Assembly: GCA_945872305.1 (NCBI GenBank)
Contig: CAMCAC010000025.1
Location: 1 to 20,976 of the forward strand
Reading direction: 5' to 3'
DNA from: Candidatus Kuenenia stuttgartensis
GTDB lineage: Bacteria > Planctomycetota > UBA11346
Length of the DNA stretch: 20,976 nucleotides
Shown: one piece after another, positions 1 to 16,208 of the stretch
Numbering within the stretch: the first letter of the stretch is position 1
Layout: every line of letters begins with the position of its first letter
Notes under the pieces: generated by a model
The model's database searches: none
The model's input: only the letters and a program-made list of their open reading frames with translations
Told to the model about the DNA's origin: nothing
Program-made: the position numbers and the translations under genes

Positions 1-180
1 CGCCACGGCGATCCCCTGCCCCTCGGCCGCGTCCCGGGACAGGGCCGCCTGGGTGCGCTGGGCGAGTTGGCGGCTGCCGGACAGGCTGGCGCTCTGGCTG
101 GCCAGGAACGGCACCCCGAGCAGGAGGAGGGCCGCGAGCACCACCATGACCAGGACGAGGGCGATGCCGGAACGGTTCAT
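1..180 (-). CDS. N-terminal 60 codons of a pseudopilin-like protein with a GspK-like hydrophobic N-terminus; the gene continues leftward beyond the window
   Basis: Minus-strand ATG at 180-178 overlaps the TGA (179-177) of the upstream gene in an ATGA junction. Translation MNRSGIALVLVMVVLAALLLLGVPFLASQSASLSGSRQLAQRTQAALSRDAAEGQ gives a basic n-region plus a ~20-residue hydrophobic helix, which resembles GspK-type minor pseudopilin N-termini (no F-T-L-x-E motif). The frame stays open to position 1. Confidence 0.4.
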   Translation of the reverse strand, partial: MNRSGIALVLVMVVLAALLLLGVPFLASQSASLSGSRQLAQRTQAALSRDAAEGQGIAVA

Positions 181-1373
181 GGGACAGTGACCAAGGAGGT
201 GACCCGGCCAGCGCCATCGATGGTGATGGCGGCGCTGCGTCCGCCGGTGGATTCGCGGAGGACGATGGTCGTGGCGCCGGCGACGCTGCCGTCCGGGCGG
301 GCCACGACCCGGACGGTGGAGGCAAGGTCGATGCCGCGGGGCAGGGGGGCGGCCTGGTCGGCGCCGAGCCGCCACAGGGCGACATCGTCGATGAGCAGCC
401 CGTCCGCGACCCGTGGGTCCGCCGGTTGGCCGGTCATGGCGATGTCGAGACGGCCGGTGATGACGGCGGGTGTGAACGGGTCCGGGAGGGTGGCCGGTTC
501 ACTGCGCGAGGTCACAGCCAGGGTCCTGCCGTTGCGCAGCAGTCCGAGGCTGGTGCCGTCCCAGACCACGGCGAGTTCGAGCCAACGGTCGCCGCCGATC
601 GGGCCGGCCGGATCGACGGCGGCGCTGCTGGTCGCCGAGCCGACCTGGGATGCGACCCCGTGGCTGGTGAGGATGGTCCGTCCACCGGCGGGATCGGTCC
701 GCCAACCGACCACCTGCCAGGTGGCGGAGCGGACATCGGCGGTCCTGCCGGGATCGCCGACCTGGACGAGATGGTCGTAGGTGACCAGGAGCAGTCCCGC
801 TGCGGACTGCTCCAGGGCGGTGCTGCCGGACTCGACCACCGCCACCACCGGCAGCACGCGGTTCTCGCCCACCCGCGGACGGGGGGGGCGGACCGCGGCG
901 GACAGGATCCATCCATCACGGCGGTTGGGGCGCTCCAGACGGTTCAGCCGTGGCAGGGGGTCGATGGGCCGGCCCAGGGCCGGGTCGGACCATTCGCTGC
1001 TCCATCCGGCTCCGGGGGCCAGGGCGGCGCCGGTGCGCCCGCCGGGGGTGATGCGGGTGTCGGTGGGATCGAAGCCTTCGAATCCCTCCTGCCAGAGGGG
1101 GATGCGGCTGACGCCGCGCACCTGGCGGGCATCCTTGTCGAAAACGAGCACGACCGGCCCACCGCTCGTGCGGGCGGTGTGGCGGGCCTGGCGCAGGGTA
1201 TCGACCACCAGGTGCTCGGCCCCGACCAGGGCATTGCCGCCACTGGTCGCCAGCCAGGCCCCGACCGTCAGGCCCATGAGGGTGGTCAGGATCCCGATGA
1301 CGATGAGCAGTTCGAGGAGCGTGAAGGCATCACGCGCCGGAATGCGGCCGAAGGCGGCGGGCGTGCCACCCAT
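177..1373 (-). CDS. Minor pseudopilin with a prepilin-type N-terminal domain, GspH/FimT-like, fused to a C-terminal LamG/concanavalin-like domain
   Basis: 398-aa ORF. The N-terminus reads AFTLLELLIVIGILTTLMGL (prepilin cleavage/methylation helix) followed by a GspH/FimT-like LVGAEHLVVDTLRQARHTARTSGGPVVLVFD region. The C-terminal half carries a LamG-like signature (LAVVWDGTSLGLLRNGRTLAV...IDDVALWR). The ATG sits 6 bp downstream of the preceding gene's stop. High GC3 codon usage is consistent with coding. Confidence 0.6.
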   Translation of the reverse strand: MGGTPAAFGRIPARDAFTLLELLIVIGILTTLMGLTVGAWLATSGGNALVGAEHLVVDTLRQARHTARTSGGPVVLVFDKDARQVRGVSRIPLWQEGFEGFDPTDTRITPGGRTGAALAPGAGWSSEWSDPALGRPIDPLPRLNRLERPNRRDGWILSAAVRPPRPRVGENRVLPVVAVVESGSTALEQSAAGLLLVTYDHLVQVGDPGRTADVRSATWQVVGWRTDPAGGRTILTSHGVASQVGSATSSAAVDPAGPIGGDRWLELAVVWDGTSLGLLRNGRTLAVTSRSEPATLPDPFTPAVITGRLDIAMTGQPADPRVADGLLIDDVALWRLGADQAAPLPRGIDLASTVRVVARPDGSVAGATTIVLRESTGGRSAAITIDGAGRVTSLVTVP

Positions 1374-1379
1374 CGCCGG

Positions 1380-1949
1380 TCAGGGCTTCCAGTTGGCGAG
1401 GTCGTCCTCGCCCCCATGCGGCATCGTCAGGGTGCTCGCGGGATCGGCGGGATCGGTCCAGTCGACGGGATCCTCTTTCTGGTTGGGCCCCAGGGACCAC
1501 ACCCAGAAGCTGTCCGGCATCGGCACGCCTTTGCCGTCGAGGACCGAGGCGTTGGCGAAGAAATCATCGTAGTTGCGGGTGTCCGCGTAGCGCAGGTCGC
1601 CGCCCCAGGCGTCGATCAGGCCCTTGGGGAAGGCCTCACGGTCCATGGACAGGACCTGGGTCCGCCACTGGCTTTGGTCGGTCTTGGTGGCGTACGGGAA
1701 GAGTCCCCGGGCCTGCTTGTACAGCTGGCAGGCGGCCACGACATTCTTGATGACGGTGGTGGTCTCATTGCGCTTCGACGCCTCCCGCACCATGCCGATC
1801 GCCGGGAAGAGCAGGCCCATGAGGGTGGCGAGGATGCCGATGACGACGAGGAGCTCCATGAGGGTAAATCCCACACGGACGGGAGGGCGGTGCACAGCCA
1901 TGCCATGGCTGACGCCGGGCCGGCGCGGACCTGTCGCCGGGCGGGTCAT
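1380..1949 (-). CDS. gspG: GspG-like major pseudopilin (type II secretion / type IV pilin-like, PVC-type prepilin N-terminus)
   Basis: The N-terminus reads MAVHRPPVRVG|FTLMELLVVIGILATLMGLLFPAIGMVREASKR, a typical prepilin leader plus methylation helix. The C-terminus reads IDAWGGDLRY...DDFF...WSLGPNQ...EDDLANWKP, which parallels the GspG core DPWGxxY...DIFSLGPDG...DDIxNW. The ATG at 1949 overlaps the TGA of the upstream gene (ATGA). An alternative start at 1901 (MAVHRPP) gives an 11-aa leader. Confidence 0.65.
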   Translation of the reverse strand: MTRPATGPRRPGVSHGMAVHRPPVRVGFTLMELLVVIGILATLMGLLFPAIGMVREASKRNETTTVIKNVVAACQLYKQARGLFPYATKTDQSQWRTQVLSMDREAFPKGLIDAWGGDLRYADTRNYDDFFANASVLDGKGVPMPDSFWVWSLGPNQKEDPVDWTDPADPASTLTMPHGGEDDLANWKP

Positions 1950-4900
1950 TCCTCGCCCTCCTCGAAGCAGACCACCTGGCCGGTGCGGATCGGGACGAGC
2001 ACGCGGCCCTCGATCGCCACCGGGGCCGCCACCGCCGGTCCGCCAAGGTCCGCCCGCCAGCGCAGGTGGCCGGTGGCCGGGTCGATGGCGTGGAGCTGGC
2101 CGGCACCATCGGCGGCGTACAGGGCCTTACGCCCCAGGGCGGGGGCGCCGGAGAGGGTGCCCATGGAGCCCTGGGCCGGATAGCGCCAGCGCAACTGGCC
2201 GCTGCGGGTCAGGTCGATGGCGTGGATGCGGCCTTCGGCGGTGGCGGCGAAGGCGGTCCCGCCGACCACCTGGATGCCGACCGGGGCTCCTTCGACCGGC
2301 CAGGCGGCGACCACCCGGCGGCCGTCCGCCACGCCGGTGCCCAGGTCGATGGCCAGGATCTGACCGCTCGCATCGGCCAGGAGCCACACGGACCGTCCGC
2401 CGATCCGGGCCGCGACGGGCTGGCCGACCGCATCGCCGCGGGTGCTGATCTCGCCCAGGGACCTGGCCGGGTTGGCCTCGGTCAGGGTGGTGATGTCGAA
2501 CAGGTGGACGGTGGAGCCGGCGGGGACCGCCAGCACGGTGCGCTCCGCTGAGCGGTCGACGAACGGGGTCGCCGTCACGTCATCCGGCAGGGGGATGCGC
2601 GGGAATCCGGCGACCCGGCCGCGCTCGGTGGAGCCGACCACCTGGATGCCCTGGCCCGCGGCGGCGGCGAACACCAGGGTCTGGTCGTGGACCAGTTCAT
2701 TGCGGTCCACGCACACGAAGCCGGTGAAGCGCAGTCCGGGGCGGCTCGGTTCCGGCCATTGCCAGAGCCGGGACCGGCTTGCCAGATCATACGCCAGGAC
2801 CCGTTCCTCGTGGCCGATGAAGACCCGGCCGTCGCGGATCGCCGGCGGGTGGCGGAACTCGGAGACGGCGTCCTCGATGGCCAGGGGACGGTCCGCCCCG
2901 GTGACCGCGTCGAGGGCGACCAGGCTCGCCCGGTTGGTCCCGAACAGGGCGGTCGTCCCCACCAGGATCGCCGGGGTGGTCACGACGGCGCCCAGCTCCC
3001 GGCGCCAGGCGGGCCCACGGGCCAGGGTGACCGACGCGGTGGTCCGGCGCACCTGGGCGGTGACGACCACGGTCTGGGCTGCGAATCCCGGCCGCACGGC
3101 GGTCACGGAGAGCGTCTCGCCGGGGGCGTAGGTCGCCCGGTGGATCCAGCGGCCGGTGGTCCCCTCGGGGGCCCGGGCGGTCTCGGCGGGGCCGGGGCGG
3201 CCGCCGGTCTGGCTCCGGCTCACGGTGAGGATGGTGCGTGGGGTGTCGACCTGGATGGAGAACGGCAGGGCCAGTCGCGTATACAGGTCCTGCAGCCGGG
3301 GATTGGCGGTCTCGCGCACGAGCTGGGCCAACCGGTCGAGGGATGCGAAGGCATCCTGGTCCTGGCCGCGGTCGGCGGCGGCGACGATCCGTTCGCCCAG
3401 GCGCTCGCCGAGCGCCAGTTCGACCTCGCCCAGACGGACCCGGGCGCGGCTGACCGCGGCCGGCTCGCCGGTGCCGGCGGCGGCCCGCTGGAAGGCGGCC
3501 CGGCCGGACTCGAGGTCGCCGCGGGCCAGGATCCGCTCGGCGCGGGCGGTCAGGGCCTCGGCGGAGGTGTGGTCGGTGGTCCAGCGCAGCCGGGTGGCGG
3601 TCAGGTCGGTGCGCAACTCCGGCGGCAGGTCCTGGCGGTCGAGGATGGGTGCGATCAGGACCAGGGCGCCGTCCCAGTCGTCGGCCTCCCAGCGACGGCG
3701 GGCTTCGCTGTACACGCCGCTCACCTCGATGTCGATCCGCGCCTTGAAGATGCGCTCGCGGAGGGTGGCGGCGTCCGCGGCGGCGCGGGTGCCCGGGAAC
3801 GAGGATTCGAGCCGGCGGACCCCTTCCAGGGCCTTGGCGTACTGGCCGCTGGCGAGCAGCGCATCGGCGCGCTCGGTCTCGATCCGGGCCTGGGCCTCGA
3901 AGTCGCGCTGGATCGACTCGCGCACCTCGGTCACCCGGCTCTGCACGGCCTGGACGCCGCTGTAGGTGCGGGCGGTCTCGTCCAGGGCGGCGATCAGCTT
4001 GGGATGCCCGAGGTCGCCTTTGAGGGTGCGGAAGGCGGTGTTGATGTCGTCGACCTCGGTCAGGCCGTTGCGCTCGAACACCACCTGACGGTAATACTCG
4101 ACGCCGAAGACCGCAGCGATGAGGAGGATCACGCCGGCGGCGATGTAGACGAAGGTGCGGATCGCCCGGCTCGTCTTGACCGACTCGCTGGCCCGGGCGT
4201 GGGCCAGCACCTGGTCCTTCACCGCCTGGTATTTGCAGTCGGCGCCGAGGATGCCTTCGAGCTCCTCAAGGGCCTTGCGCGGGCCGCGGCCGGCGAGCAG
4301 CGCATGCCACAGGGCCTTGTACTCGACCACCGCATTCTCGGTCTGGCCGTCGATGAGGTAGGCGCGGGCGAGGTGGCGGTGCGGGTCCGGGGCACGCGGC
4401 ACCAGGTTCTTGGCCCGGTGGCAGGCGTCGATGGCCCGGGCCGCGTCCTTGGTGCCGAGGAACGACTGGGCGGCCTGGCAGAATGCCTCGGCGGCCTCAT
4501 CCGCGCGGCCGAGGTCGGCCAGGGTGTGGCCGCGGTCGGCGTGCAGCTCCGGATCCTCGGGGGACAGGGCGAGGACGGTGTCGATGTCCGCCAGGGCCTG
4601 TTCCAGCTCGCCGGCGTCCTGGCTGTGCTGGATCAGCTCCAGGTAGATCTCCACCGCGCGCGGCACCTGGTCGGTGGCGGCACAGACCTCGGCCAGGGGG
4701 CGCAGGACCTCGGGGATGCGGGCCTGGCCGAGCGCGACCTCCAGCAGGTCGCGGGCGCGCATGGCCTCGCCGCCCTGGCGCAACGCCACGGCATCCTCGA
4801 CGATCTCCTGGGTGGTGCGCGGGCGGGCGACCTGGGCGAGGACGAGCTGGGCGACGATGGCGAAGGTGTCGAACTGGGTGACCCCGACCTGGCGGGCGAC

Positions 4901-5545
4901 CACGGCCAGGGCGTGGCGGCCATCCAGGTAGCGGACCACCTTGAGCATGTCCGGATCGGTCTGGACGTTCTTGAGGTTGGGGCGGCCTTCATTGTCGACG
5001 ATGAACAGCGTGTTCTCGTCCGGGATGATCTCGCGGATCCGCTTCCATTCATCGCGCCGGCGGGTGGCCTCGAGGATGAGCTGGGTCGTCGGCAGGCGGG
5101 TGGCGCCCATCTCGACCGCATCGAAGCCCTGGAGCTCCGGCGGGATGGGGCCGTCGGCAAAGGAGAACTCGCCTTCGGTCCACTCGAACACCGGGCAGAA
5201 GACCTCCTCGATGCACCAGGCGCAGACTTCGTCGAGGTCGCCATCCGGGATGTAGGCGCTGGCCACGAGCAGGTCGCGCAGGGGCTGGGCGATGGTGCGC
5301 AGGCGGCGGGTCAGCTCCTCGGCCTGGTCGGCGGCCAGCAGGTTGCGCTTGACCAGGGCGTGGATCAGGAACGGCCGCCCATCGACCGGCGGGGCGCTCG
5401 CCGCGGCGATCTGACCCTGATCGAAATGGACGCGCACGGTGCCGGCTGGGCCGGCCACCACCATGGTGCCGGTCTGGCGGTTCATCGCCAGCGTCTGCAC
5501 GATGTCGGTCAGGTTGACGGAAGAGAGTTGGCCCTGGAAACCCAT
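1946..5545 (-). CDS. Large multidomain membrane protein: N-terminal DUF4388 domain, TPR repeats, one TM helix, TPR/coiled-coil region, and a C-terminal PQQ-type beta-propeller
   Basis: 1199-aa ORF. The N-terminus MGFQGQLSSVNLTDIVQTLAMNRQTGTMVV...VRVHFDQGQI matches the DUF4388 consensus (GxLxxFSLxDllQll...kTGtL....g.iyf.nGqiv). TPR-like helical repeats follow (AVEIYLELIQHSQDAGELEQALADIDTVLALSPEDPELHADRGHTLADLGRADEA...). A single hydrophobic segment reads IRTFVYIAAGVILLIAAVFGV. The C-terminal third carries repeated PQQ/BamB-like blades (GQLHAIDPATGHLRWR, GRIHAIDLTRSGQLRWRY, GQILAIDLGTG, RVLAYDLASRSRLWQW). Confidence 0.7.
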   Translation of the reverse strand: MGFQGQLSSVNLTDIVQTLAMNRQTGTMVVAGPAGTVRVHFDQGQIAAASAPPVDGRPFLIHALVKRNLLAADQAEELTRRLRTIAQPLRDLLVASAYIPDGDLDEVCAWCIEEVFCPVFEWTEGEFSFADGPIPPELQGFDAVEMGATRLPTTQLILEATRRRDEWKRIREIIPDENTLFIVDNEGRPNLKNVQTDPDMLKVVRYLDGRHALAVVARQVGVTQFDTFAIVAQLVLAQVARPRTTQEIVEDAVALRQGGEAMRARDLLEVALGQARIPEVLRPLAEVCAATDQVPRAVEIYLELIQHSQDAGELEQALADIDTVLALSPEDPELHADRGHTLADLGRADEAAEAFCQAAQSFLGTKDAARAIDACHRAKNLVPRAPDPHRHLARAYLIDGQTENAVVEYKALWHALLAGRGPRKALEELEGILGADCKYQAVKDQVLAHARASESVKTSRAIRTFVYIAAGVILLIAAVFGVEYYRQVVFERNGLTEVDDINTAFRTLKGDLGHPKLIAALDETARTYSGVQAVQSRVTEVRESIQRDFEAQARIETERADALLASGQYAKALEGVRRLESSFPGTRAAADAATLRERIFKARIDIEVSGVYSEARRRWEADDWDGALVLIAPILDRQDLPPELRTDLTATRLRWTTDHTSAEALTARAERILARGDLESGRAAFQRAAAGTGEPAAVSRARVRLGEVELALGERLGERIVAAADRGQDQDAFASLDRLAQLVRETANPRLQDLYTRLALPFSIQVDTPRTILTVSRSQTGGRPGPAETARAPEGTTGRWIHRATYAPGETLSVTAVRPGFAAQTVVVTAQVRRTTASVTLARGPAWRRELGAVVTTPAILVGTTALFGTNRASLVALDAVTGADRPLAIEDAVSEFRHPPAIRDGRVFIGHEERVLAYDLASRSRLWQWPEPSRPGLRFTGFVCVDRNELVHDQTLVFAAAAGQGIQVVGSTERGRVAGFPRIPLPDDVTATPFVDRSAERTVLAVPAGSTVHLFDITTLTEANPARSLGEISTRGDAVGQPVAARIGGRSVWLLADASGQILAIDLGTGVADGRRVVAAWPVEGAPVGIQVVGGTAFAATAEGRIHAIDLTRSGQLRWRYPAQGSMGTLSGAPALGRKALYAADGAGQLHAIDPATGHLRWRADLGGPAVAAPVAIEGRVLVPIRTGQVVCFEEGEE

Positions 5546-5600
5546 GGTGGGACAAGGCTAGGCAGGGATCCCGCGGTGCCAGCAGGGATCTCGGGGGCCG

Positions 5601-5620
5601 CCCCCGCCGGCGGCCGGGGG
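5601..5620. other. Short GC hairpin just past the permease stop, in the 76-bp gap before the DUF4388 gene ATG
   Basis: cccccg (5601-5606) / loop ccggcggc / cggggg (5615-5620). The adjacent direct repeat cagggatc (5574-5581 and 5583-5590) is also noted. There is no U-tract, so it may simply be an intra-operon structure. Confidence 0.2.
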
Positions 5621-5621
5621 C

Positions 5622-6818
5622 CTATTCGTGGCGCAGGGCCTCGATCGGATCCAGCCGGGCGGCCCGGCGGGCCGGGTACCAGCCGAAGAACAGGCCCACC
5701 GCCACGGATACCGCCAGGGCCATCAGGATCGCGCCGCCCTGGACCACCGGCGGGAACGGCATCACCGCCGCCGCCAGGGCGGTCAGGCCCCACCCGAGGA
5801 GCACGCCCAGGATCCCGCCGGTGCCGGTGACCAGGGCCGCCTCGATGAGGAACTGGCGCCGGATGTCGCGCTCCCGGGCGCCGATGGCCTTGCGCAGGCC
5901 GATCTCCCGGGTCCGTTCGGTCACTGCCACGAGCATGATGTTCATGATCCCGATGCCGCCGACGAGCAGGCTGACCGCGGCGATGCCGGCGAGCAGGGCG
6001 GCGAACACGCCGCTGATCTGGCGCAGTTGGTTCAGGATGTCCTGGTTGCGGTAGATGGCGAAGTCGCGCTGGGCCGGGTCGGCCAGACGGTGGCGGCGGA
6101 GCAGGGTGCGGCCCACCGCCTCCTCGGCGGCTTCGAGCCGCCCGGGCCGGGCGAGGACCTGGATCTGGCCCAGGCGCCCGCCGTCGACCAGCCCGCGGCG
6201 GGCGGCGGCCAGGGGCACGATGGCCATCTCGTCCGGCTCCAGGAAGCCCTGGCGGCCCTGGGCGGCGAGCACGCCCACCACCCGCATGGGGACGGGACCG
6301 ACCAGGACCGTCTGGCCCAGGGGCTCCCGGTCCGGGAACAGCCGGCCGGCGACCGCGGTGCCGAGCACCGCCACCGGGATGCCCAGGTCGCTCTCGCTGG
6401 CGGTGAACAGCCGGCCCCGGGCCACCGGGAGGTCGGTGCAGGCGAAATAGCCGTCGCTGGTGGCGATGACATTCGCGGTGCTCTCCCGGCCGGCACCGCG
6501 CAGGGTCGCCCCGGGCGCCTGCTGGACCGGGGCCACCGCCGCCACCTCGGGGAGGGTGGCGAGGGCCGACGCATCACCGGGATCCAGGCCGCGCACCGCC
6601 CGCGGCCGGCGGCCGTCGCCCCAGTCGTCGAACACGAACATCACCTCGGCGCCTTTGCGGGCGAAGCCCTGCACGAGCCGCTGCTCGGCCCCGGCGCCCA
6701 CCGCGAGCATGGCGATCACCGCCGCCACCCCGATCACCACCCCGGACATGGCGAGCAGGCTGCGCAGGGGATTGCCGCGCAGGCTCTGGACCGCGGTGGA
6801 CAGGAGCATCAGCCACAT
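5622..6818 (-). CDS. ABC transporter permease, FtsX/MacB (DevC/LolC-like) family
   Basis: 398 aa. The N-terminus [29 protein letters not shown] is the MacB-type permease signature, followed by a periplasmic domain. The C-terminal FtsX core reads [40 protein letters not shown] plus terminal TM helices. The start (6818 or 6809) overlaps the upstream ATPase stop (6809-6811). Confidence 0.85.
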
Positions 6819-7516
6819 GGCGGCGCCCCCTCGTCACTGGCGACGAGCCCATCCGCGAGCCGGATCCGACGCGGGCAGCGGGCCGCCACCCCGGGATCGT
6901 GGGTGACGATGACGATGGTCCGGCCCTCGCGGTGCAGTTCCGCGAACAGGCCGAGGATCTCCTCGCCGGTGCGCGAATCGAGGTTGCCGGTGGGCTCGTC
7001 CGCCAGGAGCAGGGCCGGGCTGCCGGCCAGGGCCCGGGCGATGGCGACCCGCTGGCGCTGGCCGCCGCTGAGCTGGTTCGGACGGTGACGCAGGCGGTCG
7101 CCGAGCCCGACCCGGCGCAGGGCCGTCTCGGCCGCCGCCCGCGCATCGGCGCGCCGGGCGTAGCGCAGGGGCAACGCCACATTCTCCACCGCATCCAGGC
7201 GCGGGAGGAGATGAAAACTCTGGAAAATGAAGCCGATCCGCCGGTTGCGGATCGCGGCCAGGCGGTCGCCATGGATCGCGGTGATGTCCTCGCCATCCAG
7301 GCGGTAGGTCCCCGCATCCGGCTTGTCCAGGCAGCCGAGGATGTGCATCAGGGTGGACTTGCCGCTGCCGCTCGCGCCGAGGATCGCCGCCATCTCCCCG
7401 GCCCGGATGCGCACATCGACCCCGGCCAGGGCGTGCACCGTCTCGCCGCCGACGGTGTAGGTCTTGCGCAGGGCGGTGGCGTCGATGACCGGGGCGGCCC
7501 CCGCAGCGTCGCTCAT
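6809..7516 (-). CDS. ABC transporter ATP-binding protein, MacB/LolD/DevA-type nucleotide-binding domain
   Basis: 235 aa with Walker [11 protein letters not shown]-loop, ABC signature [15 protein letters not shown], Walker [13 protein letters not shown] and H-loop VTHD. The ATG at 7516 overlaps the TGA of the membrane-fusion protein gene (ATGA at 7513-7516). Confidence 0.9.
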
Positions 7517-8790
7517 AGGCCGAAATCCATCTCGTCGCGCCAGCGGATCTTGCCCGCGGGGGGCAGTTCCACGGATTCGCCGGCGTCCAGGCCGGAGAGG
7601 ATCTGCTGGCGGCGGCCGTCGGTGCCGCCGACCAGCACGGCCCGGGTCCCGGACGATGCGGCGGCGCTGGCGCTGCGCAGGACCACCTCGGTGCGGCCGT
7701 CGATCCGGCGGACGGCCTCGACCGGGATGGTGATGGCGGCGGCTTCATCAACGGTGGTGATCTCGACCCCGACGGTCATGGGCGGGCGCAGGGGCAGGTC
7801 GGATCCGGCCAGGCGGATGGTCACCGGGAAGCTGACCGATCGCCCCTCGCGCACGCCCTCGCTGGCGATGGCGGCGACCGTGCCCGAAAAGCGCCGGCCC
7901 GGGAACGCTTCGCAGGTGACCACGGTGAGCTGGCCCGGGTGGACCCGGCCCACATCGGATTCCGGCAGATCGACCTGGACCGAGAGCCGGGACAGATCCG
8001 CCAGGGCCGCCACCTGGGTGCCGCCGCCGATGGTGGTGATGCCGGAACTGACGATCTGGCCGACCTCGACCAGGACCCGGGTCACGGTGCCATCCACCGG
8101 GGCGGTGATCCGGGTCTTGGCCAGGCGCCGGCGGGCGTCGTCCAGGTCGAGTTCCCGGCTGCGCAGGTCCGCTTCCGCCAGGGCGAGTTCCGCCTGGGCG
8201 ACGGCGATGTCGGCTCCCCGCAGGGCGGCCTCGTCGATGGCCAGCCGTGCCCCGGCCAGTCCGGCGACCGCGGTGGCTTCGCCGGCGATGGCCGCGTCGG
8301 TGCTCTCGGGGGTGGTCACGCCCTGGCGGAGGAGATCGCGTTGCCGGGCGGCCCGGGTGGCGGATTCCGCAGCCCGGGCCCTGGCCGCGGCCAGTTCCGC
8401 CGCCGCCCGCTCCTGGGCCAGGGCGGTGGCCCGGGTCTCCCGGTCCAGACGCAGGCGGGCCTGGTCGAGCCGGGCCCGGGCGGCGACCACCCCGGCCTCG
8501 GCCCGGGCCACCACCCGGCGCTCGTCGTCGGGATCGAGCTGCACAAGCAGGTCCCCGGCCCGCACCGGCAATCCCGAAGCCGCCGGCACCGCCGCCACCT
8601 GGCCGCTCGCTTCCGCCTTGATCTCCACGCTCTGGGCGCTGACCACCCGGCCGCTGGCGGTGATCGTTTCGATGAAGCGTCCCTGTTCCGCCGTCGCGGT
8701 GGCCACCGGCGGGGGTGGTGGATCCCCGCATCCGGCGACCAGGACCACGGATGCCAGGAGCCAGCGCATGCGGGGAGCGTTCATGCGCAT
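7513..8790 (-). CDS. Efflux periplasmic adaptor (membrane-fusion protein), HlyD/MacA-like lipoprotein
   Basis: The ORF is open to 8859, but the plausible start is 8790 (MRMNAPRMRWLLASVVLVAGC), which gives a lipoprotein signal with an LVAGC lipobox. It has a beta-barrel/lipoyl-like N-domain (FIETITASGRVVSAQSVEIKAEASGQV), a long Ala/Arg-rich alpha-helical hairpin (~130 aa), and a C-terminal beta domain (VTRVLVEVGQIVSSG...). This is the first gene of the MFP-ATPase-permease set. Confidence 0.8.
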   Translation of the reverse strand: MRMNAPRMRWLLASVVLVAGCGDPPPPPVATATAEQGRFIETITASGRVVSAQSVEIKAEASGQVAAVPAASGLPVRAGDLLVQLDPDDERRVVARAEAGVVAARARLDQARLRLDRETRATALAQERAAAELAAARARAAESATRAARQRDLLRQGVTTPESTDAAIAGEATAVAGLAGARLAIDEAALRGADIAVAQAELALAEADLRSRELDLDDARRRLAKTRITAPVDGTVTRVLVEVGQIVSSGITTIGGGTQVAALADLSRLSVQVDLPESDVGRVHPGQLTVVTCEAFPGRRFSGTVAAIASEGVREGRSVSFPVTIRLAGSDLPLRPPMTVGVEITTVDEAAAITIPVEAVRRIDGRTEVVLRSASAAASSGTRAVLVGGTDGRRQQILSGLDAGESVELPPAGKIRWRDEMDFGL

Positions 8791-8885
8791 TCCGGACGCA
8801 CCAGCCCCCGGAAACTGACGATCAAACAGGTATAAGGATATCCGGGCGTTGTTATCCATTATGTTCCGGGCACTGTGGCGGAGCC
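8791..8885. promoter_or_regulatory. Divergent promoter/operator region between the MFP operon (minus) and the NMO-family gene (plus). It is a local low-GC island with a palindromic element.
   Basis: The only AT-rich stretch in this part of the window is ctgacgatcaaacaggtataaggatatccgggcgttgttatccattatgttccggg. It contains the palindrome GGATATCC (8836-8843), GGATA (8836-8840) inverted to TATCC (8853-8857), and a repeated tccggg (8841-8846, 8865-8870). It also carries a TATAAG -10-like hexamer. Confidence 0.35.
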
Positions 8886-10310
8886 ATGCCTGACCCCGCC
8901 CGCCGCCCGCTCCCCCGCATCATCCAAGGAGGCATGGGTGCCGCCGTCTCCACGTGGCGCCTGGCCCGGGCGGTCTCCGCCCAGGGCGGCCTGGGCGTGG
9001 TGAGTGGCACCGCCATCGAGCGGGTGCTGGCCTGCCGGCTCCAGGAAGGTGATCCGGGCGGGATCATGCGTGCCGCCATCGCCCGCTTCCCGGACCAGAC
9101 CATGGCCCGGTCCGTGGTCGGCCGCTGGTACCGCCCCGACGGCCTGCCGGCGCCGGGTGTGTATGCCCCGGTCCCCATGTTTTCGGAACGCTCACCGGCG
9201 GACCTCATCCATCTCGCCGTCGTCGCGGCCTTCGTCGAGATCACCCTGGCCCGCCAGGACGATGCAGGGGTTCCCCATGGCGGTCAGGTGGGCATCAACC
9301 TGCTGGAAAAGATCCAGCCGCCGACCCTGCCGCTCCTGCATGGAGCCATGCTCGCCGGAGTGGACTGGGTGCTCATGGGCGCGGGAATCCCGCGCGAGAT
9401 CCCAGGCCACCTGGACCGCCTCGCCAGGGGCGAACCCACCGCCCTGAAACTGGCGGTGGCGGACGGTCCGGCCATCGAACTGCCCTACGATCCAGCCATC
9501 GTCCAGCCGCTGGCACCGCTCGCCCGTCCGGGCTTCCTGGCGGTGGTGGCCAGCGATGTCATGGCGGCTTCCCTGGCCCGCTCCGGCGGGGTGGATGGCT
9601 TCGTCGTCGAAGGCCCCACCGCCGGCGGCCACAACGCCCCCCCACGGGGCGCCGGTCGGACCCCCGTCGCCAGGCCGGTGTACGGCGAGCGCGACCGGGC
9701 CGATCTCGCCCGCATGCGCAGCTTCGGCGTGCCGTTCTGGCTGGCCGGCGGGCAGGCTGGACCGGGCGCCCTGGCGGCTGCCCTGGAGGCCGGGGCCGCG
9801 GGTGTGCAGATCGGCACCGCCTTCGCCTTCTGCCGTGAATCCGGACTCGATGGGGCCGTGCGCCGCCGGATCCTCGATGGTGTGCGGGCCGGCACGGTCC
9901 AGGTGATCACCGATGGGCGCGCCTCGCCGACCGGATTCCCGTTCAAGACCATGGACATACCCGGCAGCGAAGGCGGCCGGCCGGCCGACGCCCGGGAGCG
10001 TGGGGCCTGCATGATGGGATACCTGCGCAGCCCCTACCGGCGGGCGGATGGCGGCCTGGGCTGGCGGTGTCCCGCGGAGCCTGAAACCCAATGGTCGGCA
10101 AAGGGCGGAGACAGCGCCGAGTGCGCCGACCGCCGTTGCCTGTGCCAGGGACTGATGTCCGCAGCGGGCCATCCGCACGTCGGCGAAGAGGGCCTGGAGT
10201 GGCCCCTGATCACCGCTGGCGACGATCTGGAGCCGGTGCGCCGCTGCCTGGACGGACGCGAGGACTACAGTGCCGCCGACGTGATGACCCAGGTGGCCGT
10301 CGCACCCTGA
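8886..10310 (+). CDS. FMN-dependent nitronate monooxygenase / 2-nitropropane dioxygenase (FabK-like enoyl reductase) family oxidoreductase with a Cys-containing C-terminal extension
   Basis: Start chosen at the MPDPARRPLPRIIQGGMGAAVSTWRLARAVSAQGGLGVVSG match to the NMO family N-terminal motif (PIIQgGMa.vs...LAaAVS.AGGLG). The ORF is open upstream to 8715, but that extension lacks homology and overlaps the divergent gene. The ~475-aa product is longer than typical ~330-360-aa NMOs. The tail from ~residue 380 has Cys pairs (GACMMGY...WRCPAEP...AECADRRCLCQG). Confidence 0.65.
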   Translation: MPDPARRPLPRIIQGGMGAAVSTWRLARAVSAQGGLGVVSGTAIERVLACRLQEGDPGGIMRAAIARFPDQTMARSVVGRWYRPDGLPAPGVYAPVPMFSERSPADLIHLAVVAAFVEITLARQDDAGVPHGGQVGINLLEKIQPPTLPLLHGAMLAGVDWVLMGAGIPREIPGHLDRLARGEPTALKLAVADGPAIELPYDPAIVQPLAPLARPGFLAVVASDVMAASLARSGGVDGFVVEGPTAGGHNAPPRGAGRTPVARPVYGERDRADLARMRSFGVPFWLAGGQAGPGALAAALEAGAAGVQIGTAFAFCRESGLDGAVRRRILDGVRAGTVQVITDGRASPTGFPFKTMDIPGSEGGRPADARERGACMMGYLRSPYRRADGGLGWRCPAEPETQWSAKGGDSAECADRRCLCQGLMSAAGHPHVGEEGLEWPLITAGDDLEPVRRCLDGREDYSAADVMTQVAVAP

Positions 10311-10499: not shown

Positions 10500-13400
10500 T
10501 CACTTCCCTGCGGCGAGCAGTTTCCGCATGAAGGTCAGTTCCTCGCGGAAGGCCGCATCGTCCGGGAACGCCTTGACCGCCCGTTCGGCGGCCGTCAGAG
10601 CCCGCTCGTTCGCCCCGACCAGGACGGCCCGCCAGGCGATGAGGAACCACTTCGGCTTGTAGTTCAGCTCCGCCTGCCACACGTCGAGCACGGTGGTGAA
10701 CCATGCGGCCGAGGCCTGGGGGGCGCGGGCGCCGAGGGTGTCCGCGGTCATGTCGCGCAGACGCTTGTCGTTGAGGTCCTTCACCCGGCGCAGGCAGGCC
10801 TGGAGCAGCGCCTTGTCCTCGGTCAGCAGGGCGAGATCGAGGCGGCTCATGTGACGCTGGATCTCGATGCTGGAATCGGTCAGGCCCAGGGCATCGGCCC
10901 GGGTGAAGGCCTCCTCGACCCTGGCGGCGGCGGCGCGCACCTTGCCCAGATCCGCGGTGCCGGCCTTGATCGCGTCGTCGTTGTAGGCGCGCAGCTGCTG
11001 GCCGAACCAGTAGGGGACCGACAGGCGGATCCACGACAGGTCGCGGGCCTGTTGCGCCTCGCCGGGCTGGCGGCGGGAATGGTCGACCTTGCCCGCGGCG
11101 GGCCAGGGGGCCGCGGCGACCGCGGTGGCGACCGCCTCCTCGCCACCCATGGAGCGGGCGAGATGCCGGGCCAGGGCGGCGTAGCGGAAATGGATGTCGC
11201 CCGGGTCTTCGACATCGCTGAAGGCGATCTTGTCGATCCAGGTGGCGGCCCGTTCCTCGGCGGCGCGCACCCCGGCGTCCGAGCGTTCGTGCTCCGGCGC
11301 CTTCTCGACCAGATCCAGGGACAGATCGGCATAGCGGGCGAGCATCTGGCGGAGCAGCATCAGGCCGCCGGTGTCGTTCACCCAGCGCTCGCGGAAGCGG
11401 GCGTTGCCGAGCATGGCCACGACCTTGCCCATCTGCTCATCCAGCGGTGCCGCGGTCTGCTCCAGGATCGCCGCCGCCGAGGCGGACAGGCCGAGCTGGG
11501 ACGCCTGGCCGGCAAGATCGAAACCGTACTCGACCATGCCCTGGCCCATCGCCGCGGCGAGTTCCGGATCCTGGAGGCGGGCGATCTCCTCGCCGATCAG
11601 GGTGCGCGCGCGGGCGTCGTCCTTGGCCTCGCGCAGAAGCCCGATCAGTTCAACGCGGCGCAGGGCCAGGGATTGCGCATCGTCGATCCCGGTCATCGCC
11701 TTTTCGAAATATTCCACGGCCTTGCCGTATTGGCCGGTGAAATGGTACAGGCCGCTCAGCTCCGTGATGTTGGCGGGATCGAGATCGCCGCCGTCGACCA
11801 GCTTCTGCATCTTGGCGATGCCGCGGGCATAGGTCTGGTACTGCCAGTCGCGTTGCACATCGATCATGATCCGGGCGTATTCGGGCTCGGCGAAGATCCG
11901 CCAGCCGAGCCGCCAGGCCCCGCGGGTGTTCTCGCCGGAGAAGCGCAGGAGCAGGCCCAGCCCGTTGGGGTCGAACGGCGCGTTGGGATTGAAGTGGGTG
12001 AAGGCGGCGCGCAGGGCCTCGGGCAGGGTCTCGCGCACGAAGTGCAGGGTCGGACCGGTCTGCATCACGGTCACCGACCAGCCCTCGGCGGCCTTGGTGG
12101 CGGTCGCGAAGGCGGTGTGGCTGGGCAGGGTGAGCAGGTGGCCGAGCCGGCCCTGCCGCTCGGCCACGGTCTGGTACAGTTCCCCGAGGTCGTCGCAGTC
12201 GCCGCGGCAGGCGCCGAGGGTGTTGCTGGTCAGGATCTGCTCGGTGGTCTGGTGGATGTCGCTCTTGACCGTCTTGTTGCCGGCCAGGAGCGGGAAGCGC
12301 GGATCCGGGCTGTCGTAGGTGTAGCGGAAGAAATATTGGCCGAGCAGGTCCAGCCGACCCAGGCTGTCGAGGATGCGCGCGCTGTCGGCGAGGAACCGCC
12401 CCGCCTCGGCGGAGGTCCCGTCGCGCATGGCGCGCAGGGTCCCGGTCTCGACCGCCAGGAAGAGGGGATCGCCGGCGGGGCTGGCGACCAGGATGTGCGG
12501 CGGGTACAGGTCCGGCAGATCGGTGTCGTCGGGACGGGGTACCGCCTTGCGCCAGGTCTTGGCGTCGACCGTCAGCCCCTTGTCCCGGGTCCACGAGGCC
12601 AGGCGTGTGCCGCTGCGATCGAAGACCCGGGCGGCCACCGCCTTGGCGGCGTCGCGGTCGGGGTCCGATCCGGCGGGCAGATCCACGGTCAGGACCAGAT
12701 TGAGCGGGGAATTGTAGAAAGGCTCCGGATGGGCGATCCGGTAGGCGGTGCGGGAGGGGGCGTTCAGCACCCATACCCCGCCGCCGAAGGCGTCACGACG
12801 GTCCTCGATGGTGATCTTGCCGTCTGCGCTCGCGTGGCCCGACGCGGGGCCGCGGCGCATCGCCGCGGCCACCGCCGCTTCGACCGCTGCGGTCTCGGCC
12901 CCGGCCTGGGGCAGGGTGGCAAGCCAGCCGCCGCGGACGAGGCGGCGGGCCGCCGCCGGGGTGTATTCGTCCAACGGCCTGGCCCGGTCCTTTTCCGGCA
13001 GCAGGTCGAGGGTGGCGACGATCGCGTCCCGGGTCCGCCGTTCGATGGTTCCCGCCGCCACATCCTTGTCGATACGCGCGGTGAGCGCGGCCACCGCCTT
13101 GGCCACCGCGGCGAGGTCCTTGCCGCGGTCGGTTTCGGCATTGGGCATGGCCCGGAGCAGGCCCTCCTCGATGGCGAGCCATTCCTTGCTCGCCAGGGTC
13201 AGCCCGGCCAGGGGGGACATCTGCAGGGCGGCGGTGCCGCTCGCCTTGCCGGCCTCGGCCTGGGCGACCAGCCGGGCCAGGGCCTTTGCGGCGGCGGCGT
13301 CCTGGGCCAGGGCCTTGTTCACCGTCACCGGGCCGACCGGGGTCGCCACGGTCAGGTGCTCCCCGGGCACCCAGGGATAGCCGCCCCAGGTCCAACCGCT

Positions 13401-13541
13401 CTCGGATGTGACCAGGGCCTGGGCCAGGGCGGCGGGCGGCTTGACCGGGGTCGCACCCTGGTCGGCGGTGGACGGCTCGGCACCGGGCAGGGCGCAGGCG
13501 ATGGCGAGCAGGGCGGGGACGAGACGGTGCATGGTGGGCAT
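10500..13541 (-). CDS. Large secreted hypothetical protein (~1013 aa) with a signal peptide, a central region containing a possible transglutaminase-like Cys/His core, and a TPR-like helical C-terminal region
   Basis: The ORF is open to 13739, but MPTMHRLVPALLAIACALPGAEP at 13541 is a classical signal peptide. Amino-acid composition is diverse (K, F, Y, W present), unlike the Gly/Arg-rich antisense frame. The central segment GACRGDCDDLGELYQTVAERQGRLGHLLTLPSHTAF loosely fits the transglutaminase-like core. The C-terminal 450 aa are alpha-helical repeat-like. Confidence 0.55.
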   Translation of the reverse strand: MPTMHRLVPALLAIACALPGAEPSTADQGATPVKPPAALAQALVTSESGWTWGGYPWVPGEHLTVATPVGPVTVNKALAQDAAAAKALARLVAQAEAGKASGTAALQMSPLAGLTLASKEWLAIEEGLLRAMPNAETDRGKDLAAVAKAVAALTARIDKDVAAGTIERRTRDAIVATLDLLPEKDRARPLDEYTPAAARRLVRGGWLATLPQAGAETAAVEAAVAAAMRRGPASGHASADGKITIEDRRDAFGGGVWVLNAPSRTAYRIAHPEPFYNSPLNLVLTVDLPAGSDPDRDAAKAVAARVFDRSGTRLASWTRDKGLTVDAKTWRKAVPRPDDTDLPDLYPPHILVASPAGDPLFLAVETGTLRAMRDGTSAEAGRFLADSARILDSLGRLDLLGQYFFRYTYDSPDPRFPLLAGNKTVKSDIHQTTEQILTSNTLGACRGDCDDLGELYQTVAERQGRLGHLLTLPSHTAFATATKAAEGWSVTVMQTGPTLHFVRETLPEALRAAFTHFNPNAPFDPNGLGLLLRFSGENTRGAWRLGWRIFAEPEYARIMIDVQRDWQYQTYARGIAKMQKLVDGGDLDPANITELSGLYHFTGQYGKAVEYFEKAMTGIDDAQSLALRRVELIGLLREAKDDARARTLIGEEIARLQDPELAAAMGQGMVEYGFDLAGQASQLGLSASAAAILEQTAAPLDEQMGKVVAMLGNARFRERWVNDTGGLMLLRQMLARYADLSLDLVEKAPEHERSDAGVRAAEERAATWIDKIAFSDVEDPGDIHFRYAALARHLARSMGGEEAVATAVAAAPWPAAGKVDHSRRQPGEAQQARDLSWIRLSVPYWFGQQLRAYNDDAIKAGTADLGKVRAAAARVEEAFTRADALGLTDSSIEIQRHMSRLDLALLTEDKALLQACLRRVKDLNDKRLRDMTADTLGARAPQASAAWFTTVLDVWQAELNYKPKWFLIAWRAVLVGANERALTAAERAVKAFPDDAAFREELTFMRKLLAAGK

Positions 13542-13671
13542 AGTGTCGACCTGGGCGCGGCGTCGATAGCCCATCCCTGCACGCCTGCGTGTGGTCCGGC
13601 AGACAGTTCCCCGCGGCCGCTGCGTCGCGGTGCCGGCTGGACGCCGCCCGGTGGGCAGGAGGATCCCGCCC
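13542..13671. promoter_or_regulatory. Divergent intergenic region (secreted-protein gene on minus, nadE on plus) containing the nadE ribosome-binding site
   Basis: AGGAGG at 13656-13661 lies 10 nt upstream of the nadE ATG (13672). This is the presumed location of divergent promoters. Confidence 0.5.
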
Positions 13672-15264
13672 ATGCGCATCGTCGTCGGCCACGCGGATCT
13701 GCGGCTCGGGGACCTGGAGGGGGCCCTGGCGGCCATCACGGTCCAGGTCGGTGCGGCGGTCGCCGCCGGGGCCGAGCTCCTGCTGCTTCCGGAATTGGCG
13801 GCCTTCGGCGGCTATCCGCCCCGGGACCTCCTCGACCGTCCGTGGTTGGTGGAACGCCAGTGGGCGGGCCTGCGCGCCGCCAGCGCCGCCTGGCCGTTGC
13901 CGGTGGCGGTGGGCGCGGTGGAGCCCCTGCCCGGTCCCGGTCCCGCCCTGGCCAATGTGCTGGCGGTGTTCGACGGCGGCCGGCTGCTCGGCCTGCACCG
14001 CAAATGCCGGCTCCCGTCCAACGATGTCTTCGACGAGCCGCGCCACTTCCGTCCCGGGGACGGCGGTACCGTGGTCGAGGTCCGCGGCCGGCGGGTCGGC
14101 CTGAGCGTGTGCGAGGACATCTGGCCGCCGGAGACGACCGGCCGGGCCTATCCGGTGGATCCCCTCGCGGACCTCGCCGGGCGCTGCGAGATCGTCCTCA
14201 ACGCCTCCGCCAGCCCCTACCACCTGGGCAAGGGCGTCGCCCGCCGCGCGGTGGTCGCCGCCGCCGCCCGCCGGGCCGGGGTGCCGGTGGTGTGGTGCAA
14301 TCTGCTCGGCGCCCACGACGAACTCCTGTTCGACGGCGGCGCCATCCGCGCCGAGCCCGACGGCCGCATCACGGAGTCGCCGCGCTGGTGCGAGGGCGTC
14401 AACACCGTGGACCGCATCCCCGAGGAACCGGCGGCGGAACCCGACCTGTGGACCGCCCTGGTCGCTGGCATCCGCGGCTATTGCCGGCGCACCCGCCAGG
14501 AGCGGGTCGTGCTCGGCCTGAGCGGCGGCATCGACAGCGCCCTCGTGGCGGCCCTGGCGGTGGATGCCCTCGGCGCCGACCGGGTCACCGGCATCCTCAT
14601 GCCCGGTCCTTACTCCAGCCGGGGCAGCGTGGTCGATGCCATGGATCTGGCGGAACGGCTCGGCATCCGCACCCACCAGTGCATGATCACCCGGGCCTGG
14701 GAAGTGCTGCTCGGCGAGCTGGATCCCCTGTGCCCCCAGGGTCCCGCGGATCTCATGACGCAGAACCTCCAGAGCCGGCTGCGCGGCGCCCTGGTCATGG
14801 CGGCGGCGAACCAGCTCGGCGCCATGGCCCTGACCACCGGCAATAAGAGCGAGCTGGCCTGCGGCTACTGCACCATCTACGGCGACATGAACGGCGGCCT
14901 GGCGCCGATCGGCGACCTGTTCAAGACCGCGGTGTACCGACTGTCCCGTTGGGCCAACCGCAACGGCGAGCGCATCCCGGTCCCGACCATCGAGAAGCCG
15001 CCGTCCGCCGAACTGCGACCGGACCAGACCGACCAGGACAGCCTGCCGCCCTACGACCAGCTCGACCGCATCCTGGAGGCCTACATCGAGGCCGGCGAGG
15101 ACCCCGCCGCCATCGCCCGCCGCGAGGACCCCGCCGTCGTCGCCCAGGTCGTCCGCCTGGTCGAGATCAGCGAGTTCAAGCGCCGCCAGGCCGCACCGGT
15201 CCTGCGGGTCAGCCGCAAGGCCTTCGGCATGGGCCGCCGCATGCCGGTGGCGCGGGCGTTCTGA
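13672..15264 (+). CDS. nadE: Glutamine-dependent NAD+ synthetase (N-terminal CN-hydrolase/nitrilase domain plus C-terminal NAD synthase PP-loop domain)
   Basis: ATG at 13672 is preceded by AGGAGG (13656-13661). The nitrilase catalytic triad context is present (LLLPELA..., LHRKCRLP, GLSVCEDIW). The C-domain PP-loop reads VLGLSGGIDSALVAALAVDALG, with NadE motifs (TGNKSELACGYCTIYGDMNGGLAPIGDLFKT). The product is 530 aa. Confidence 0.9.
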   Translation: MRIVVGHADLRLGDLEGALAAITVQVGAAVAAGAELLLLPELAAFGGYPPRDLLDRPWLVERQWAGLRAASAAWPLPVAVGAVEPLPGPGPALANVLAVFDGGRLLGLHRKCRLPSNDVFDEPRHFRPGDGGTVVEVRGRRVGLSVCEDIWPPETTGRAYPVDPLADLAGRCEIVLNASASPYHLGKGVARRAVVAAAARRAGVPVVWCNLLGAHDELLFDGGAIRAEPDGRITESPRWCEGVNTVDRIPEEPAAEPDLWTALVAGIRGYCRRTRQERVVLGLSGGIDSALVAALAVDALGADRVTGILMPGPYSSRGSVVDAMDLAERLGIRTHQCMITRAWEVLLGELDPLCPQGPADLMTQNLQSRLRGALVMAAANQLGAMALTTGNKSELACGYCTIYGDMNGGLAPIGDLFKTAVYRLSRWANRNGERIPVPTIEKPPSAELRPDQTDQDSLPPYDQLDRILEAYIEAGEDPAAIARREDPAVVAQVVRLVEISEFKRRQAAPVLRVSRKAFGMGRRMPVARAF

Positions 15265-15437: not shown

Positions 15438-16208
15438 ATGGATCACCTCCTCACCGCCCTCAGCGCCTTCCCGACCGTGGTGTTCACCACCCTGCTTGCC
15501 GCAGCGGTGGTGTACTGGCTGCTGGTCATCCTCGGGGCGCTGGACCTGGACCTGTTCCACCTGGGCGATGCGGACGCCGGTGATCATGATCCGCACGCCG
15601 GCCACAACGGGTTCGCCATCCTGGAGTTCCTCCGGGTGGGGCAGGTGCCGATCACGGTGATCTCGAGCCTGTTCATCGTCTTCGCCTGGCTCGCCAGTTT
15701 CGCCGCCACGATGTTCCTTCGGCCGGTGGTGCCGGAGTGGTCGTGGTGGCTGTTCGGCGGGGCGACCCTGGTGGGGGCCATCGTGGTCGCCTACCTGGGC
15801 ACCGGCTTCGTCAGCGCGGGTCTTGCCCGGGTATTCTCCATCCGCGGGACGGTCACCGCCGCGAGCCTGGTCGGCCGGGTCGTGGAGGTCACCTCGTCCA
15901 CGGTGGACGCCCGGTATGGCACCGCCCGTCACGACCGGTTGACCGGTGAGGACATCCTCCTCAACGTGGTCTGCGATCCCGCCCACACCCTGAAGCGCGG
16001 CGACCAGGCGGTCATCATGGAATACGATGCCGGCAAGGGTGTGTACCTGATCGCGCCCCTGCCCCACACCCGGGAGGGCTTCGCCGTCGAGGCGGAGCCG
16101 CGCCCGGCCCTGCCGCCCCCGGCGGGCGCCGCCGAGCCCGTCGCCCCGCCCGTCGACACTCCCGCCCCGGCCGCCGCCCCCGGCCGCCGCGACACCCTCG
16201 CCCAATGA
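15438..16208 (+). CDS. yqiJ: YqiJ-like inner-membrane protein (DUF1449) with a C-terminal NfeD-like OB-fold
   Basis: 256 aa. It has N-terminal TM helices with an acidic/His-rich loop (LDLDLFHLGDADAGDHDPHAGH), further TM helices, and a C-terminal beta-rich domain (GRVVEVTSSTVDARYGTARHDRLTGEDILLNVVCDPAHTLKRGDQAVIMEYDAGKGVYLIA) that matches the layout of E. coli YqiJ. The stop overlaps the flotillin gene ATG (ATGA at 16205-16208). Confidence 0.75.
   Translation: MDHLLTALSAFPTVVFTTLLAAAVVYWLLVILGALDLDLFHLGDADAGDHDPHAGHNGFAILEFLRVGQVPITVISSLFIVFAWLASFAATMFLRPVVPEWSWWLFGGATLVGAIVVAYLGTGFVSAGLARVFSIRGTVTAASLVGRVVEVTSSTVDARYGTARHDRLTGEDILLNVVCDPAHTLKRGDQAVIMEYDAGKGVYLIAPLPHTREGFAVEAEPRPALPPPAGAAEPVAPPVDTPAPAAAPGRRDTLAQ

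Follow-up and report, generated by a model that had tools for sequence, protein, structure and literature searches.

Which cellular task is served by a protein that joins a cytoplasmic PATAN domain (DUF4388) to a large periplasmic beta-propeller through one membrane helix? This question is raised by a gene on the minus strand (1946..5545) of a 20,976-nucleotide stretch of DNA, hereafter the window (contig CAMCAC010000025.1 of the Candidatus Kuenenia stuttgartensis assembly GCA_945872305.1), which corresponds, in reverse orientation, to a section of a 35-kb metagenome contig (L003). Taken together, the predicted topology of the 1199-residue product, the gene order around its relatives and published binding data on PATAN domains make it moderately probable that the protein is a bitopic coupler of the inner membrane, acting in the type IV filament machinery (pilus or pseudopilus) of uncultured Planctomycetota.

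Domain organization and predicted topology

The window has a GC content of 72%, and the gene is overlapped by a long open reading frame (ORF) on the plus strand. The minus-strand ORF displays the codon-position GC pattern of a real gene, with a GC content at third codon positions of 0.93 versus 0.73 for the overlapping frame, and its translation, its homologues and an AlphaFold2 (AF2) model identify it as one whole gene for a PATAN-TPR-transmembrane-propeller protein. The AF2 model, built with 67 homologues, has a mean predicted local distance difference test (pLDDT) score of 88.9, low confidence being confined to the transmembrane (TM) helix. An initial annotation, made from the sequence alone, had proposed that DUF4388, TPR repeats, one TM helix and a PQQ propeller are fused within this protein. 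Pfam searches, hydropathy and the AF2 model all confirm this architecture, and three further parts are added to it: a winged-helix-like module, a periplasmic helical repeat and a beta-sandwich.

The protein begins with the PATAN domain itself (MGFQGQLSSVNL...) and not with a lipoprotein signal peptide. This domain (residues 1-175; 5021..5545, minus strand, as are all parts of the gene) matches PF14332 over residues 4-168 and model positions 1-122 of 122 with an E value of 6.8e-25, scoring 87.9 bits against a gathering cut-off of 25. In the AF2 model its beta-rich core holds a four-helix insertion, the alpha-clip (residues 59-121), whose helices 59-66, 72-85, 89-96 and 101-121 lie between strands 45-50 and 126-131. 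Such an alpha-helical insertion, consisting of two helical hairpins, is a described feature of PATAN domains (bioRxiv 10.1101/2021.06.11.447907). A PatA-type regulator, in which PATAN is combined with a receiver (REC) domain, was rejected as an identity, as no Response_reg match was obtained at E <= 1 in either Pfam or NCBIfam.

PATAN is followed by a small winged-helix-like module (residues 176-244; 4814..5020), which contains helices within residues 188-236 and a short strand and matches HTH_47 weakly (E 0.025); the same family is precomputed for several homologues. The rest of the cytoplasmic half comprises 12 helices arranged as about six TPR-like repeats (residues 245-452; 4190..4813). 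Several TPR models of Pfam match residues 309-360, each under its own cut-off, so that this part of the fusion is recognized at a sub-threshold level, by its helices and by its invariant columns (C375, H376, R377, K379, P388-H389-R390, E408-Y409, W413-H414 and D436-C437).

The sole strong hydrophobic segment, residues 459-486 (TFVYIAAGVILLIAAVFGV; hydropathy 2.5), marks the approximate extent of the predicted TM helix (4088..4171). It is preceded by the Lys/Arg-containing stretch KTSRAIR and followed by acidic residues, which by the positive-inside rule points to an N-in/C-out orientation. The position of the helix is conserved in those aligned homologues that are displayed, and it lies at 445-498 in more distant relatives. 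Hydropathy and the charged flanks thus bear out the single helix and the cytoplasm-to-periplasm topology first suggested for the protein. On sequence and structural model together, we take it as established that the protein is bitopic, with a predicted cytoplasmic N-terminal half and a predicted periplasmic C-terminal half.

The periplasmic half can be divided into three domains: an all-helical, TPR-like repeat domain (residues 490-757; 3275..4078), a beta-sandwich with seven strands in both AF2 models (residues 758-842; 3020..3274), and a C-terminal BamB-like propeller (residues 843-1199; 1949..3019). The propeller is supported by a Pfam PQQ_2 match with an E value of 2.8e-20; 31 strands are listed for it in the AF2 model, and the predicted number of blades, for which a structural check had been proposed, is eight. 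In NCBIfam the protein yields BamB and TPR matches only, all sub-threshold.

One explanation of this half would be a periplasmic dehydrogenase dependent on pyrroloquinoline quinone (PQQ) and fused to a regulatory domain. We regard this as extremely improbable, since the propeller measures about 355 residues, against some 560-600 for the dehydrogenases, and better matches come from 8-bladed scaffolds without enzymatic activity. The identity of the protein as a PQQ enzyme is effectively refuted by the family scores, PF01011 reaching 19.6 bits versus 26.7 over 37 residues only, and TIGR03075 17 versus 480. A BamB orthologue was likewise rejected, given scores of 71.1 bits versus 285.2 for TIGR03300 and 35 versus 423 for NF008351 and the absence of a lipoprotein signal.

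A conserved family of uncultured Planctomycetota

A search of 5.8 billion proteins, with matches counted as 90%-identity clusters, returned at least 115 homologues. Nearly all are full-length at about 1200 residues, share 35-84% identity with the protein and have identical precomputed Pfam content; they are named only "DUF4388 domain-containing protein" or "Planctomycetota bacterium". A profile search for distant relatives among 1.84 billion 50%-identity representatives gave 805 matches at E <= 1e-30. Among the best 150 of these 805, at least 65 of the 142 new sequences possess the PATAN domain, the TPR block, a TM helix at 445-498 and the propeller, and in all eight of the 65 that were checked with Pfam, DUF4388, TPR and PQQ_2 were found. 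The fusion had been called unusual; this holds among PATAN proteins, but the many homologues with the same architecture show that it is not rare. The family is one of conserved Planctomycetota membrane proteins, no one-off fusion.

Every named member of the family belongs to an uncultured Planctomycetota metagenome-assembled genome (MAG). No cultured carrier is present among the family matches, and a profile built from 25 distant relatives returned mostly the same close family together with a few TPR-only proteins. The GTDB/NCBI records of four loci (L017, L018, L032 and L037) are titled Candidatus Kuenenia or Brocadiaceae MAGs, which may mirror either a true presence in anammox lineages or loose automated naming; the others are titled only Planctomycetota.

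Conservation is unevenly distributed along the protein. Median identity across the family amounts to 58-64% in the cytoplasmic half and 30-38% in the periplasmic half. The most conserved block is the winged-helix-like module (residues 176-244, 64%), the PATAN domain (residues 1-175) standing at 58%. A conserved cytoplasmic half joined to a divergent periplasmic half would fit conserved partners in the cytoplasm and fast-evolving partners in a surface filament.

The downstream pseudopilin cassette

Gene order provides the main evidence for the function of the protein, and it was compared across 47 loci of relatives, a few of which are duplicates. Four cassette genes follow the PATAN gene on its 3' side, with successive junctions that are either 4-bp overlaps or a 6-nt gap. 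Such a set of four translationally coupled genes stands immediately 3' in about 70% of informative loci. The first encodes a GspG-like pseudopilin of 189 residues (1380..1949, minus strand; pseudopilin 1), and its start codon overlaps the stop codon of the PATAN gene in the sequence ATGA. Together with the presence of pseudopilin 1 directly 3' of the PATAN gene in 23 of 32 informative loci, this overlap supports the functional link to the adjoining pseudopilins that the initial annotation had suggested. The second gene (177..1373, minus strand) encodes a 398-residue pseudopilin with a GspH-like N-terminus and a larger C-terminal domain that matches Laminin_G_3 weakly. The fourth gene, for a GspJ-like pseudopilin, lies on the contig after a giant third gene, outside the window.

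The assignment of these three proteins as pseudopilins is based on their class III signals, in which a cleavage/methylation motif precedes a hydrophobic helix, and on family matches. The signals read G|FTLMELLVV in the 189-residue protein, AFTLLELLIV in the 398-residue protein and GFTLVEIMVS in the fourth; the first two also match N_methyl. All three exceed the TIGR02532 cut-off of 16.3 bits, with 16.8, 17.4 and 19.4 bits, respectively. The more specific names are approximate, the equivalog cut-offs being unmet for GspG (E 1.4e-8, 189-residue protein), GspH (E 1.3e-4, 398-residue protein) and GspJ.

The third gene is represented in the window by its start only (1..180, minus strand) and runs past the left edge; gene calls on the contig give a product of 1746 residues, and 1600-1900 residues are found across the family. 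Its N-terminus is a hydrophobic, pilin-like segment (GIALVLVMVV) without Glu5, and a motif, IEDExGKLDxN, is conserved across 15 aligned orthologues, which we take to be that of GspK-type tip pseudopilins. Sub-threshold matches were obtained to PilX_N in 5 of the 15 orthologues and to GspK (E 0.27). On these grounds the giant protein is a candidate GspK/PilX-like tip pseudopilin. As a whole it matches no Pfam family and nothing in the PDB, and a profile of its N-terminus retrieved no GspK or PilX structure from the PDB, just chance matches to TM helices.

The upstream mglA/mglB module

On the 5' side of the PATAN gene, relatives carry a second conserved module. Of the 38 informative loci, 24 have an MglB-like Roadblock gene at most 400 nt upstream, and two more have one at about 410 nt. 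The usual order upstream is TPR-Roadblock, Roadblock, GTPase (400-540 residues) and Roadblock. The first 195 residues of the GTPase identify it as an MglA orthologue, with E values of 2.7e-75 to Thermus thermophilus MglA (PDB 3t12) and about 2e-73 to Myxococcus xanthus MglA; the 172-residue Roadblock protein is MglB (6izw_B, E 3.4e-20).

Characterised MglA proteins are soluble and about 195 residues long, whereas the orthologue associated with this family has a C-terminal extension. In four of five GTPases checked (L002:8251-9468, L048:8017-9393, L050:8195-9400 and L051:2666-4282), the extension consists of a Pro/Gln/Ala-rich linker and a strong hydrophobic helix, e.g. LFVIIITLAVLLGIVYVLM, followed by an acidic tail; the 514-residue copy of L001 has no C-terminal hydrophobic helix. 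The linker and helix suggest a tail-anchored protein, and the MglA orthologue upstream of most relatives would thus be tethered to the membrane by its C-terminal tail.

The upstream module persists at great evolutionary distance. P0135 and P0125, which share about 20% identity with the protein of the window, retain TPR-Roadblock, Roadblock, GTPase and Roadblock genes upstream. In one of these two, at locus L050, the large downstream cassette is absent, and a smaller, divergently transcribed one at 3036-6233 on the minus strand stands beside the mglA-mglB-PATAN operon; it encodes two GFTLLEVM pilins of 128 and 240 residues, a 480-residue GspK-like protein without Glu5 and a 199-residue protein. 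The PATAN gene is the hinge between the mglA/mglB module and the pseudopilin cassette, and either flank can be missing.

Additionally, genes for sigma-54-dependent activators were observed at two loci. In the closest relative (L053:710-2992) the activator gene directly precedes the PATAN gene, and in a distant one (L051:1-930) it precedes the TPR-Roadblock gene. Many pilin operons are regulated by sigma-54, and the positions of these activators hint that the module may be so as well.

This gene order also bears on a more general explanation, namely that the protein is a scaffold for envelope biogenesis: a BamB/BamD-like platform anchored in the inner membrane and unrelated to pilins, with a cytoplasmic half that serves localisation only. 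Such a scaffold would leave the conserved synteny with pseudopilins and mglA/mglB unexplained. Furthermore, the folds concerned are generic, with sequence identities of just 9-18%, the BamB family scores 71 versus 285 bits, and a TM anchor stands in place of a lipoprotein signal. We therefore hold this explanation to be improbable.

The exporter genes upstream in the window

The window retains the pseudopilins, and the place of mglA/mglB is taken by an exporter. According to gene calls and Pfam, overlapping genes at 5622-8859 on the minus strand encode a HlyD-family adaptor (448 residues), an ABC ATPase (235 residues) and a MacB-type permease (398 residues), and beyond them lies a gene of the nitronate monooxygenase family (NMO-like) on the other strand. 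No outer-membrane factor gene is found near this complete HlyD-ABC-MacB operon. The initial annotation had envisaged signalling or scaffolding for this exporter, and the protein could indeed be an accessory or scaffold subunit of the tripartite complex: the exporter genes end just 76 bp upstream of the PATAN gene on the same strand, and one other locus (L026) carries orthologous MacB-ABC-HlyD genes about 2.8 kb away. However, L026 is the only other locus with these genes nearby, and there they lie downstream and on the opposite strand. Among the 38 loci with upstream information, the exporter adjoins the PATAN gene directly upstream in one, this contig; most relatives have mglA/mglB in its position, the closest relative (84% identity) has the sigma-54 activator 13 bp upstream and no exporter there, and another relative has unrelated genes. 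The proposed link thus finds no support in the wider family. The assignment as a MacB accessory is largely refuted by this non-conserved synteny, and we consider an exporter subunit very improbable. A GC-rich hairpin located between the MacB and PATAN genes does not exceed shuffled sequence in stability (z -0.36).

A proposed coupler of polarity switch and pseudopilus

Published data indicate how a protein of this kind might act. The PATAN domain alone binds the N-terminal domains of PilB1 and PilC and localises to the membrane, and MglA/MglB genes often adjoin PATAN genes (bioRxiv 10.1101/2021.06.11.447907). The latter neighbourhood is also noted in two earlier genome-context studies (PMC4316618, citing Makarova et al. 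2006). In the coupler that we propose, the cytoplasmic half, with its alpha-clip-bearing PATAN domain, winged-helix-like module and TPR-like repeats, would contact partners in the cytoplasm. For most relatives, the candidates are the products of the adjacent upstream genes, namely the membrane-tethered MglA GTPase and its MglB/Roadblock regulators; cyanobacterial PATAN suggests, by analogy, that the assembly ATPase and the platform protein may also be bound through their N-terminal domains. The single TM helix would bear the connection through the inner membrane, and the periplasmic helical repeat, beta-sandwich and 8-bladed propeller would form a platform to which the four co-translated pseudopilins bind, the giant candidate tip protein among them. 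There, the periplasmic half might position or prime pseudopilin assembly at sites set by the cytoplasmic switch. Information might flow from inside to outside, so as to position assembly, or in the opposite direction, so as to sense the filament or a surface.

The second direction corresponds to a distinct explanation, an outside-in sensor, in which the periplasmic domains detect the state of the filament, the tip protein, a surface or a ligand, and the PATAN/TPR half resets the MglA/MglB switch. This is the trans-envelope signalling of the initial annotation, and it has a parallel in the sensing of surfaces by way of pilus tip proteins. Synteny and topology speak for it as they do for the coupler, the rapid evolution of the periplasmic half is common in domains that face ligands or have sensory roles, and the sigma-54 activators upstream in the closest relative and in L051 hint at regulatory wiring. 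A single TM helix and the lack, in Pfam, of any HAMP, kinase, REC or GGDEF domain leave no obvious signal route, though, and in the literature PATAN figures as a domain for output or binding rather than as a receiver (bioRxiv 10.1101/2021.06.11.447907). A sensor is hard to tell from a scaffold by sequence data alone; we judge it unlikely.

Several observations weigh against the proposed coupler. The case is one of guilt by association and analogy, in which the binding partners and the direction of control are inferred. The part of the 35-kb contig that was examined (31.8 kb, positions 3250-35038) contains no GTPase or Roadblock gene (mglA/mglB), nine informative loci are without pseudopilin genes nearby, and some loci have neither flank. 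Genes for an assembly ATPase, a platform protein and a secretin are not among the Pfam-annotated called genes of eight loci. Within the protein itself, no similarity to GspL, PilM, PilN or PilO was detected in Pfam or NCBIfam at E <= 1, and folds such as its propeller and helical repeats are generic scaffolds.

An association of PATAN proteins with MglA/MglB and with type IV filaments is already known. The present family differs in that it spans the membrane, has a large periplasmic half and shares a conserved operon with pseudopilins; full-text searches retrieved no paper describing either this architecture or an mglA-PATAN-pseudopilin cluster of Planctomycetota, and database annotations of the family list domains only. 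PATAN domains act on type IV pilus motors, and all studied examples are soluble regulators. The conserved place of a membrane-spanning PATAN gene, with mglA-mglB on one side and a pseudopilin operon on the other, points to a possible direct physical connection through which a Ras-like switch could reach the assembly of a periplasmic filament. We tentatively raise the possibility of an undescribed trans-envelope module, in which tethered MglA and three Roadblock proteins, acting via the bitopic PATAN protein, directly gate the assembly of a giant-tipped pseudopilus. If so, a Ras-like polarity switch would be wired to type IV filaments in a new way, with the PATAN protein replacing the GspL or PilM/N/O connector in what would be the first trans-membrane role for PATAN. 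Planctomycetota have a strongly polar cell biology, with budding and polar pili or fimbriae, and few characterised polarity factors. The family offers a concrete, testable polarity candidate and a defined nine-gene module to be sought in cultivable relatives, as a lead that rests on synteny and analogy and lies entirely within uncultured organisms.

Other genes in the window

The remaining genes lie beyond the exporter. Two are ordinary housekeeping neighbours, the NMO-like gene (8886-10310, plus strand) and a gene for glutamine-dependent NAD synthetase with CN_hydrolase and NAD_synthase domains (13672-15264, plus strand). Between them, a 1024-residue protein (10500-13574, minus strand) has no Pfam domain beyond sub-threshold TPR; L014, L015 and L029 also encode homologues of it, at a distance of a few kb on the upstream side of the cluster, which may only mirror local synteny among related genomes. 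An apparent three-gene operon occupies 15438-20976 on the plus strand. Its first two products, of 256 and about 755-761 residues, have no Pfam match, and the middle gene is of odd composition, with a GC content at second codon positions of 0.39 and an AT skew of +0.45 over 17001-18000. The third product, 1739 residues long on the parent contig, matches DUF3686 ("ATPase involved in DNA repair", E 2.4e-173) and DUF7902.

Comparison with known systems

The PatA-type PATAN-REC regulators of cyanobacteria (PixE, PixG, PilG-type and PatA) share the N-terminal PATAN domain with its helical insertion. In these proteins PATAN serves for output close to the membrane, where its binding partners are PilB1, the pilus assembly ATPase, and PilC, the platform protein (bioRxiv 10.1101/2021.06.11.447907). 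They are soluble, about 380-400 residues long and equipped with REC, whereas the Planctomycetota protein is an integral membrane protein with no receiver and a periplasmic second half, and is encoded beside pseudopilin genes.

The downstream cassette resembles the Verru_Chthon cassettes of Verrucomicrobiota (TIGR02596-TIGR02600), also of the PVC superphylum, which similarly combine several prepilin-type proteins with one very large member. The pseudopilins of the window match Verru_Chthon cassette proteins C and D weakly, all below the cut-offs (e.g. 23 versus 70 bits), and the giant protein does not match cassette protein A. No PATAN protein is known to accompany a Verru_Chthon cassette.

Two known propellers can be compared with that of the periplasmic half. 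BamB (YfgL) has a periplasmic, non-enzymatic, 8-bladed PQQ-like propeller of the same kind, which is a protein-binding platform; BamB is an outer-membrane lipoprotein of about 390 residues, whereas the PATAN protein is anchored in the inner membrane. The C-terminal propeller of PilY1 docks onto minor pilins and thereby primes pilus assembly. PilY1 is a secreted tip protein rather than an inner-membrane one, and no PilY1 family match was found in the PATAN protein with Pfam or NCBIfam.

Links between the MglA/MglB switch and type IV pilus formation are provided elsewhere by the TPR proteins SgmX of M. xanthus and Bd2492 of Bdellovibrio, the latter of which reportedly acts in MglA-linked pilus formation. 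Unlike the 1199-residue protein, both are soluble and cytoplasmic and lack a PATAN domain, a TM helix and any periplasmic portion.

GspL of type II secretion and PilM/PilN/PilO, the alignment complex of type IVa pili, are likewise bitopic connectors with N-in/C-out logic that are co-encoded with pseudopilin genes; the PATAN protein would resemble them by functional analogy only. The cytoplasmic part of GspL/PilM/PilN engages the assembly ATPase, and the periplasmic part contacts pseudopilins or the platform. By analogy, the PATAN protein might perform a similar connecting role with different parts, with PATAN and TPR standing where GspL has its actin-like domain, and a helical repeat, a beta-sandwich and a propeller where it has its ferredoxin-like one.

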